This document shows, in pieces, positions 121 through 4,110 of a stretch of DNA of 31,379 nt. The notes beneath the pieces were generated by a model. The model searched no databases. It was given only the letters and a program-made list of their open reading frames with translations, and was not told where the DNA came from. Source of the DNA: Chloroflexota bacterium (GTDB taxonomy: Bacteria; Chloroflexota; Dormibacteria; CF-121); contig VBFX01000026.1 in the NCBI GenBank assembly GCA_005889395.1, forward strand, positions 1 through 31,379. Reading direction: 5' to 3'. The translations under genes were made by a program, and so were the position numbers. Positions within the stretch are counted from its first letter, which is position 1. Every line of letters begins with the position of its first letter.

Positions 121-2727
<2,607 letters not shown>

Positions 2728-2735
2728 GCAATAAG

Positions 2736-2764
2736 GAGGAAGAGACCCGCGTGGTTTCTTCCTC
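2736..2764 (+). terminator. Stem-loop after nrdJ
   Basis: GAGGAAGAGACC-cgcgt-GGTTTCTTCCTC, a 12-bp stem with one G-U pair; no clear U tail. Confidence 0.45.
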
Positions 2765-2780
2765 TCGACCCTTGGAGGCC

Positions 2781-2921
2781 ATGCAATCGCATCCGTCGTG
2801 GTCGCATGAGGGGCCCGAATGTCCGTGCGGAGGTGCGACGGACTGGGATGGACGGAAATTTCGTTGTCGTGGATGTGGTCTCTATTACGAAACTTGCTGC
2901 GACGGCGGTCGCTGTCCATGA
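2781..2921 (+). CDS. Small Cys-rich zinc-finger-like protein (46 aa), not in ORF track as such
   Basis: MQSHPSWSHEGPECPCGGATDWDGRKFRCRGCGLYYETCCDGGRCP, with GGAGG at 2774-2778 and CPC / CxxC / CC motifs. Confidence 0.65.
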   Translation: MQSHPSWSHEGPECPCGGATDWDGRKFRCRGCGLYYETCCDGGRCP

Positions 2922-2982
2922 TCGCGAAAAAATTCTGAAAAATTCTGCTCACTGACCCGCCCGCGGCCGTCAGCACCGCCGC

Positions 2983-3036
2983 TCGCGAAAAAAATTGGGC
3001 CGAGAGTATGCAAAGCGGCTCAATTCATGCTATGGT
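2983..3036 (+). promoter_or_regulatory. Sigma70-type promoter with upstream A-tract
   Basis: ATGCAA (3008-3013), 17 bp spacer, TG-C-TATGGT (3028-3036); A7 tract at 2988-2994. Predicted start about 3043-3044. Confidence 0.55.
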
Positions 3037-3043
3037 CGCACTT

Positions 3044-3204
3044 AATGAGCGCGCAGCCGCGCTCTGATCGTCGCGTTGATCAGGGCGAGGGACTGAAGAA
3101 GGGCAACAGTCAAAGAACTCCGCGGACCACATCGATGAACGTCGACGTGTGGCTGTGCGGATCCCGAGGGTCGATCGCGACGCGCCGTCGCTCCCCTCGT
3201 TTTT
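3044..3204 (+). ncRNA. Candidate structured ncRNA or riboswitch-like leader, family not recognised
   Basis: Helices 3047-3053/3058-3064, 3060-3069/3078-3087, 3091-3095/3107-3111 and about 3120-3160. Ends in hairpin 3165-3199 followed by TTTTT. No convincing protein in this stretch. Confidence 0.45.
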
Positions 3205-3340
3205 CTCTCTCCACTTTGCTTCCGGCACCCGGCCTCGCCGGCGCCCGCGCGTCCACGGTACCCGTGGCGCTCACGCGCGTTTGGCGGCGGCGTCCAAGCG
3301 GCCGACCGGGGGAATCTCGCTAAGAAGGAGGTGAGCCCGG

Positions 3341-3406
3341 ATGGCCGCAAAGAAGAAAGCAGGCGGAAAGAAGAAAGCCGCGAAGAAGTCGTCGAAGAAG
3401 AAGTAG
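3341..3406 (+). CDS. 21-aa lysine-rich micro-protein (MAAKKKAGGKKKAAKKSSKKK)
   Basis: AAGGAGGTGA SD at 3325-3334; 11 of 21 residues are Lys; followed by its own terminator. Confidence 0.75.
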   Translation: MAAKKKAGGKKKAAKKSSKKK

Positions 3407-3431
3407 GTTAGCTTTTAGAGCTGACTTCAGA

Positions 3432-3461
3432 TACAGCCGGTGCCTTCGGGCGCCGGCTGTA
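3432..3461 (+). terminator. Strong stem-loop with UUCG tetraloop
   Basis: TACAGCCGGTGCC-TTCG-GGCGCCGGCTGTA, a 13-bp stem with one G-U pair. Confidence 0.7.
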
Positions 3462-3474
3462 GCATTTGTGGGCG

Positions 3475-3882
3475 ATGATCGATCTCGAGCGCGCCCGTCA
3501 TTTCCTGAAGGTCCGGCATGACGGCATCCTGGCCACCATCAAGCGTGATGGTCGCCCCCAGCTCTCCAACATCCTCTATTTCGTGGACGACGACGGCCGC
3601 GTAAAGATCTCCGTCACCCAGACCCGCGCCAAGACCCACAACCTTCGGCGCGACCCGAGGGCCAGCCTGCACGTCCAGGGTCGCGACCGCTACGAGTACT
3701 TAGTGGCGGAGGGGACGGCGCAGCTGATCGAGGGCGACGGGCTCGCAGAGGCGCTGCGCCACTATTACCGCAAGGTCCGCGGCGAACACCCCGACTGGGC
3801 CGAATACGACGCCGCCATGATCGCGGACCAGCGGCTGCTGCTCGCGATCTCGGTCGAGCGCGCCTACGGCTCGCTTCGCTAG
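3475..3882 (+). CDS. PPOX-class F420-dependent oxidoreductase (pyridoxamine 5'-phosphate oxidase family)
   Basis: GILATIKRDGRPQLS and KTHNLRRDPRASL motifs, about 135 aa. Confidence 0.85.
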   Translation: MIDLERARHFLKVRHDGILATIKRDGRPQLSNILYFVDDDGRVKISVTQTRAKTHNLRRDPRASLHVQGRDRYEYLVAEGTAQLIEGDGLAEALRHYYRKVRGEHPDWAEYDAAMIADQRLLLAISVERAYGSLR

Positions 3883-4110
3883 CTAGCGGACGGCCAGGCA
3901 GGTGACGGTCTTGAAGACGCCGTCGATCTTCTGGATCTTCTCGACGATGACCGATCCGATCCCGGCCACGTCGGGCGCCTCGACCGCGGCGATCACGTCA
4001 TATTCGCCGGTGATGGCGTCGGCCAGCTCGATGCCTTTGACGCCCTGAAGAGACCTGGCCACCTCGATCGCCTTTCCCGCCGACGCGTTGATGAGCACAT
4101 ACGCCCGCAT
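3883..4110 (-). CDS. Stand-alone Lrp/AsnC ligand-binding domain protein (75 aa)
   Basis: MRAYVLINASAGK...ITGEYDVIA...IQKIDGVFKTVTC with GGAGGG SD. This is the C-terminal part of track ORF 3883..4941. Confidence 0.85.
   Translation of the reverse strand: MRAYVLINASAGKAIEVARSLQGVKGIELADAITGEYDVIAAVEAPDVAGIGSVIVEKIQKIDGVFKTVTCLAVR

Follow-up and report, generated by a model that had tools for sequence, protein, structure and literature searches.

What is made from the DNA between nrdJ, a class II ribonucleotide reductase gene, and a gene for a PPOX-class oxidoreductase in the Dormibacteria: a structured RNA, a very small protein, or both? The sequence analyzed here is a contig of 31,379 nucleotides (nts), which we call the window, and its organism is an uncultured soil member of the Dormibacteria, a lineage that is abundant. 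An earlier note on this DNA had proposed a self-contained unit with a strong promoter, about 300 nts of stacked RNA hairpins, a Lys-rich microprotein of 21 residues and a terminator. The order in the window is nrdJ (7-2727, assigned by Pfam), a Cys-rich open reading frame (ORF), the unit with its leader and micro-ORF, and the PPOX gene. Judging from its substitutions in relatives, the micro-ORF (3341-3406) is a real, conserved and unannotated protein-coding gene, and 99 nts of its leader are a candidate new cis-regulatory motif.

A micro-ORF conserved as a protein

The micro-ORF encodes the Lys/Ala peptide MAAKKKAGGKKKAAKKSSKKK, in which 12 of the 21 residues are Lys. The identical 21-mer is encoded by nine distinct nucleotide versions, and among the 11 distinct 21-codon versions found in the window's own family the variable sites at codon positions 1, 2 and 3 number 2, 1 and 9, respectively. 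ORF lengths in this family are 66, 69 or 72 nts, with indels only in threes. The ORF is 97% identical within the genus and 86% in the other genera of the family; the peptide is the same in almost all genus members, with conservative changes elsewhere. This pattern bears out the microprotein suggested earlier as one that is conserved at the protein level. The full-length Shine-Dalgarno (SD) sequence reported with it is also present: because the 16S rRNA of a same-family genome ends in ...GGATCACCTCCTTT, the SD AAGGAGGTGA is a perfect 10-nt complement, and AGGAGGT is invariant upstream of every homologous unit.

Standard gene callers do not see genes of fewer than 30 codons, and this gene, with 20-27 codons, falls below their usual minimum. 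Six peptide variants looked up exactly in a collection of 15 billion proteins were all absent, yet few sequences in the neighborhood are as well conserved as the peptide. Three variants gave no match in Pfam or NCBIfam at E values up to 10, and no description of the gene was found in the literature.

For the distribution, the window's own family is designated f1, and f2, f3, f4 and f5 are other families of the Dormibacteria. The gene was counted with a DNA pattern (SD, start codon and an Ala-Lys-Lys-Lys motif) and a reversed pattern as control; this replaced a hidden Markov model from the peptide alignment, which was so insensitive that it missed the window's own gene. The pattern was found in 38 of the 42 f1 genomes and 96 of the 159 f3 genomes, in none of the 117 f2 or 44 f5 genomes, and in 1 of 134 genomes from the rest of the phylum. 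The sole match among 11 f4 genomes (G070) was false, as it is not a Lys-rich short ORF, and the reversed pattern gave 0 in every Dormibacteria family scanned. Altogether 24 peptide variants of 20-27 codons each are known from f1 and f3; the spacing of KKK and KK is conserved, and the non-Lys positions and their spacing are kept as well. Within the genus, 27 of 29 genomes contain the whole unit of 549 nts, and within the family 34 of 36 do. Three unpublished genomes (G018, G110 and G127) are counted in the tallies of the unit, the pattern, the leader hairpin and HU, and no conclusion rests on them; alignments A2 and A3 include locus L005 of G018 as a row, with the same unit sequence as the public record in L072.

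The f3 homologues, for example MAAKKKAAKKPAAKKAAKKSAKKK, lie in units with a conserved promoter of their own (TTGACG-N18-TATCAC), a conserved leader of 147-255 nts and a GC hairpin followed by a T-run, that is, a U-tailed terminator. The gene often occurs in two or three copies per genome (range 1-3). Its flanking genes, for an alpha/beta hydrolase and a DAO-type oxidoreductase, are on the opposite strand, the downstream one being convergent. Since the f3 ORF has no downstream gene to regulate, an attenuator is disfavored and a product whose dosage is relevant is favored, which argues for the peptide as the product and not as a regulatory ORF. The f3 leader differs in sequence from that of f1 and gave no Rfam match; it has its own conserved hairpins, with compensatory changes in 5 of 24 pairs. 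Because the covariance model of the conserved f1 hairpin finds no f3 homologue, the two leaders are not callable as one RNA family. Common to f1 and f3 are the protein and the layout of the unit, with a promoter, a long structured leader, a maximal SD, the micro-ORF and a hairpin, but not the RNA. The deepest split therefore conserves the protein, since the peptide is common to both families and the leaders are not.

The f3 units show further regularities. In loci L081, L082 and L083-L087 two units stand in tandem, 330-450 nts apart, and some genomes have a third copy elsewhere; each tandem unit has the TTGACG/TATCAC promoter, the conserved leader and a near-identical terminator stem with the loop TTCTGTGG. 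Within the leader, a 6-base-pair (bp) hairpin (columns 31-51 of alignment A4, e.g. L083 1752-1939, minus strand) carries an 8-nt loop, ACCACAGA, that is almost invariant across genera and paralogues, with G at the first position in 2 of 20 leaders, and is a candidate recognition site.

Leader RNA and transcription of the f1 unit

The f1 leader of about 300 nts has a minimum free energy (MFE) of -202.5 kcal/mol, compared with -174.6 kcal/mol for shuffled sequences (z = -4.5; 0 of 100 shuffles as stable). Folding of the stacked hairpins therefore exceeds chance, but they are not of equal status, for only 3217-3315 is conserved beyond the genus. The 5′ part (3041-3216) is 82-87% identical within the genus and 36-41% in the other f1 genera; the corresponding values for the 99-nt hairpin, here after called the rod, are 95% and 81%. 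No part of the leader other than the rod is conserved throughout the family, and the rod ends 10 nts 5′ of the SD. Its covariance model (R1) scores 111 bits at 3217-3315, finds a single copy in 37 of the 42 f1 genomes, each adjoining the peptide gene, and has no credible match in 108 genomes of other families, f3 included.

The rod was folded with RNAalifold (3219-3312), and its substitution pattern fits the predicted structure. Variation affects only 6 of 64 paired columns, compared with 22 of the 35 that are unpaired (Fisher p = 3e-8, without correction for phylogeny), and five of the six variable stem columns change to G-U wobble pairs. Insertions of 5-7 nts are confined to the apical and internal loops. 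A 5-nt bulge, CGCUC, and single bulged bases are invariant, and the other loops vary.

The leader had been described as lacking a credible protein, and this view was upheld: long ORFs inside it (3027-3323, plus strand; 3042-3350, minus strand) have no Pfam match, and because relatives carry indels of 1, 5, 6 and 7 nts, it is considered non-coding. In agreement with the earlier failure to recognize its RNA family, no Rfam covariance model matched at the gathering threshold in the window or in eight related loci, and E-value thresholds also returned nothing. The best sub-threshold match, sX6 (17.6 against 40 bits), lies on the ORF and terminator, outside the leader. A hairpin at 3165-3204 was considered as an internal terminator and rejected, as its U-run decays to CU in many members of the genus and is absent in other genera.

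A pyrimidine tract precedes the rod in every f1 genus despite the turnover of the sequence; in the window it is the CU-rich tract 3200-3217, complementary to the purine-rich SD and ORF. Partition-function folds predict a paired SD (mean pairing probability 0.84-0.91), the partner being the pyrimidine tract or the bases just 3′ of the rod.

Upstream of the leader, the A-tracts listed previously are all in place, and the putative promoter would set the start of transcription near 3043-3045. Its -10 block has a mean identity of 93% in the genus, and TATGGT is retained in four of the five f1 genera at a fixed position 5′ of the leader. The elements of the proposed promoter exist, but by consensus it is not a strong one: the -35 sequence ATGCAA matches the consensus at three of six positions, and a consensus scanner run over 2600-3900 called neither a promoter nor a terminator.

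At the 3′ side, the 13-bp hairpin (95% identity in the genus, 78% in the family) was likewise found as described, with the GC-rich stem-loop of an intrinsic terminator. No U-tract follows, only the UUU within GCAUUUGUGGG, and RNA-library contigs cross it; its f3 counterparts carry T-runs. Because only UUU follows and the next ATG (3475) is 14 nts away, the hairpin could act as a leaky terminator at most. All five f1 genera keep the order nrdJ, unit, PPOX and a minus-strand gene of the Lrp/AsnC type, which extends the nrdJ-PPOX synteny already named for the window. In these genera PPOX starts 129-145 nts after the micro-ORF ATG, which is 8-24 nts past the hairpin. This distance leaves no room for a separate PPOX promoter, and PPOX is probably co-transcribed by read-through.

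Evidence from RNA comes from six RNA libraries with parts of the locus, four of which were compared with the window, in the form of assembled contigs of relatives with 90-95% identity. The transcript asked for earlier is represented in them, as four metatranscriptome runs contain contigs of the leader and ORF. Two metatranscriptome contigs, X15 rec5 (3214-3789) and X17 rec20 (3229-3616), span the rod, ORF and hairpin into PPOX. Since the PPOX start is so close and contigs bridge the hairpin, the f1 unit is probably not self-contained. For independent transcription the signs are mixed: the conserved -10 block of its own and the monocistronic f3 unit speak for it, but the linkage to PPOX in f1, the bridging contigs and contigs 5′ of the predicted start speak against it.

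The motif CUUCUUC/ACUUC (3419-3428 in the window), complementary to the last Lys codons, lies at most 30 nts after the stop codon in 22 of 25 f3 units and 24 of 37 f1 units, and can pair to give a hairpin around the stop codon. Positions of the features are collected in Table 1.

Table 1. Features of the unit and its surroundings, in window coordinates
Feature	Position	Strand	Details
Tandem repeat	2926-2947	+	Two copies of AAAAATTCTG; directly 3′ of the stop codon of the Cys-rich ORF (2919-2921); kept within the genus (alignment)
A-tracts	2927-2932, 2938-2942, 2988-2994	+	Read in the sequence
A7 tract	2988-2994	+	Possible UP element, about 14 nts 5′ of the -35-like hexamer; an A/T-rich block is kept here in genus relatives
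Putative promoter	3008-3036	+	-35-like ATGCAA 3008-3013; TG 3028-3029; -10 TATGGT 3031-3036
Variable 5′ leader part	3044-3216	+	Predicted (MFE fold): competing helices at about 3048-3090; hairpin 3165-3199, then U5 3200-3204; CU-rich tract 3200-3217
Rod hairpin	3217-3315	+	Predicted: six stacked helices, 32 bp; CUUCCGG 3219-3225 pairs with CCGGGGG 3306-3312
Shine-Dalgarno sequence	3325-3334	+	AAGGAGGTGA; 6 nts before the ATG
Microprotein gene	3341-3406	+	ATG 3341, stop TAG 3404-3406; 21 codons, MAAKKKAGGKKKAAKKSSKKK
7-bp hairpin	3407-3425	+	Directly after the stop codon; then CUGACUUC, complementary to the last Lys codons
13-bp GC-rich hairpin	3432-3461	+	UUCG loop; leaky terminator or intercistronic stabilizer; not called by the scanner
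F420-dependent PPOX-class oxidoreductase gene	3475-3882	+	TIGR03618 subfamily, NCBIfam 118 bits; Pfam PNPOx_N

Function of the microprotein and its leader

The explanation towards which we lean, with modest confidence, is a polycationic nucleic-acid-binding microprotein under leader-mediated control, a function that we infer from the features above. Transcription would start, most likely, at the conserved extended -10 element near 3044 and give a leader of about 300 nts, the last 99 of which would fold into the very stable rod that ends 10 nts before an SD of maximal strength. The rod and the pyrimidine tract 5′ of it may set the accessibility of the SD or the processing of the mRNA, which would make the leader a cis-regulatory 5′ untranslated region (UTR) and not a separate RNA gene. 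The small peptide would bind polyanions in general, be they DNA, RNA or polyphosphate, as the Lys/Ala tails of histone-H1-like proteins do, and might exert feedback by stabilizing helices of its own leader. In f1, most transcripts would stop or be stabilized at the 13-bp hairpin, the remainder reading through into PPOX. Were the ligand the nucleoid, the ribosome or polyphosphate, the peptide would represent a new minimal class of bacterial polycationic proteins.

The closest known proteins in composition are histone-H1-like Lys/Ala proteins such as AlgP, Chlamydia Hc1 and Hc2 and the C-terminal tail of mycobacterial HupB/MDP1, with which the peptide shares short-period repeats of the AKK/PAKK type; f3 variants with AAKKPAAKKAAKK (AAKK/PAAKK periodicity, AAKKPAAKK repeats) come nearest. 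Such proteins bind DNA or polyphosphate through their charge; PMC9239181 connects Pseudomonas AlgP with polyphosphate granules, and lysine-rich pentamers of Chlamydia Hc2 are described in PMC2848022. Short-period Lys/Ala repeats also dominate the microprotein, but neither a long repeat array nor attachment to a folded domain was found: H1-like proteins are either 100-350 residues long or form tails on folded domains, whereas the microprotein is free-standing, has 20-27 codons and is 5-15 times shorter. It also differs in having its own promoter, a long structured leader and a terminator, and the two share no family model. The label histone-H1-like, used in the earlier note, thus suits the composition and repeats, especially those of f3, and the role that it implies stays conjectural. 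Among leaders, those of r-protein operons and the SD-sequestering 5′ UTRs of the fourU/ROSE type likewise place a stable structure by the SD together with a pairable pyrimidine tract, but the f1 leader belongs to no Rfam family and its SD pairing exceeds that of shuffled sequences by a small amount.

The distribution of HU across the families gives a suggestive, weak lead towards a role in the nucleoid. In f3, a search at E ≤ 0.01 did not find PF00216 (HU/IHF) in 40 of the 41 genomes with a completeness of at least 90% (e.g. G053, G074 and G161), and the peptide gene is present in 1-3 copies. In f1, 41 of 43 genomes have PF00216 in a divergent form (about 35 bits), with one copy of the peptide gene. 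Canonical PF00216 (60-114 bits) occurs in 15 of 15 f2 and 3 of 3 f5 genomes, in which the peptide gene was not found. HU is, to our knowledge, near-universal in bacteria, and its apparent lack in a whole family with 1-3 copies of the peptide gene raises the question of what organizes the DNA there. The peptide as a detached Lys-rich tail of HU was also considered, but it is not simply that, because the HU proteins of f2 and f5 carry short basic tails only; moreover, their genes lie elsewhere.

Several results weigh against a nucleic-acid-binding peptide controlled by its leader. Compensatory changes were found in 0 of the 32 rod pairs, 99.8% of cells being paired, so that covariation cannot prove the fold; conservation of the leader in relatives, named earlier together with covariation as a check, is strong for the rod, but covariation in the f1 rod is nil. 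The SD is paired with a probability of 0.91, compared with 0.82 when the upstream sequence is shuffled, and 33 of 41 homologues exceed their own control; because this control reaches 0.82, SD sequestration is plausible at most. RNA-library contigs also cover 2967-3022, 5′ of the predicted start, their depth over the unit does not exceed that over the flanking genes, and they could stem from DNA carry-over or read-through from nrdJ. No more than four or five lineages underlie the HU pattern, and in many f3 genera both HU and a pattern match are missing.

Two other explanations give the peptide or the leader a different partner. In the first, which we regard as unlikely, the peptide would be a lineage-specific ribosomal or ribosome-associated microprotein of the bS22, bL37 or Thx type, and the rod its autogenous operator, with excess peptide binding the leader and so blocking translation of its own gene. 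According to PMC6133939 and PMC10085706, these proteins have 21-33 residues, are very basic and lie below gene-caller thresholds, and bS22 and bL37 were unannotated until ribosome structures were obtained. The microprotein resembles them in size and charge and in having been missed by annotation; its SD is maximal, the peptide is invariant in the genus, and, as in many operons of r-proteins, the SD adjoins a leader that is both conserved and structured. However, no curated family model matches it, including the r-protein models of NCBIfam and Pfam, and unlike bS22, bL37 and Thx it is Lys/Ala-only and repeat-like, varies in length and copy number, and occurs in two families of one class. A ribosome component does not usually drift in length and repeat number, or vary in copy number (1-3), as the peptide gene does in f3. 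In three sister families no such gene was found, and the leaders of f1 and f3 are unrelated despite the common peptide. Mimicry of rRNA by the leader was rejected at the level of sequence, the best local score to same-family 16S and 23S rRNA being 25, a value equaled by 10 of 200 shuffles.

The second, likewise improbable, makes the leader a sensor independent of the function of the peptide, a ligand or cation riboswitch or an RNA thermometer that gates translation through pairing of the CU-tract with the SD. The invariant CGCUC bulge and bulged bases amid otherwise variable loops, the SD-complementary tract before the rod in every genus and the predicted pairing of the SD are all consistent with such a sensor. 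Metabolite riboswitches usually control several genes, however, and this leader occurs once per genome and matches no Rfam family. Its stems are conserved and most of its loops and junctions vary, the opposite of a typical aptamer, and the SD is not clearly more paired than in the composition control.

A bolder version of the explanation that we prefer would make the oligolysine peptide a principal polyanion counter-ion or nucleoid protein of these Dormibacteria, in part replacing HU, and the leader a sensor of polycations, in which the peptide or the total polycation load stabilizes an SD-hiding helix at the base of the rod. This is doubtful, and if it were true, such charge-homeostatic feedback would be a mode of regulation as yet undescribed for the chromatin proteins of bacteria.

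There is very little to recommend the Lys-rich ORF as an attenuator leader peptide, in which the speed of ribosomes on the 12 Lys codons would sense lysyl-tRNA and decide between termination at the 13-bp hairpin and read-through into PPOX. Enrichment in a regulatory codon is seen (12 Lys among 21 codons), a hairpin follows the ORF with the PPOX ATG close behind it in all f1 genera, contigs bridge this hairpin and an Lrp/AsnC-type regulator gene is nearby, but no downstream operon for the same amino acid was found, the next gene being PPOX in f1, which has no known link to lysine, and a convergent gene in f3. The f3 ORF, moreover, is followed by a proper U-tailed terminator and by no gene on its own strand, and it occurs in tandem copies; the conservation extends to the non-Lys positions and their spacing, no antiterminator alternative is evident, and a maximal SD behind a leader of 300 nts is atypical for attenuator peptides.

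That the transcript is mainly a non-coding or dual-function RNA with an incidental or secondary ORF is hardly tenable in view of the clear protein-coding substitution pattern, even though merely 63 of its approximately 420 nts are coding, in which it resembles RNAIII/hld and SgrS/SgrT, and the rod is as conserved as the ORF.

Neighboring observations

The Cys-rich ORF of 56 codons (2751-2921, plus strand) follows the nrdJ stop codon (2727) and has a GTG start and an AAGGAGG of its own. Its product contains CxC and CxxC motifs and ends in ...CRGCGLYYETCCDGGRCP, and relatives vary mostly at third codon positions; it has no Pfam match. It resembles the Cys-rich zinc-finger C-terminal tail of class II ribonucleotide reductases, here as a stand-alone gene.

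Two loci of the same genus show rearrangements. In one of them (L007 900-2000, G006:C14), a tandem duplication of about 495 nts comprises the final part of the Cys-rich ORF, the promoter, the leader in full and 11 nts from the start of the micro-ORF; given the junction ATGGCCGCAAA/TTCC, the start codon of the first copy is fused to a foreign frame. The duplication could be real or an assembly artefact. In the other (L050, G001), the nrdJ match is broken by about 1.2 kb at residue 167, and this interruption may be an intein or another insertion.

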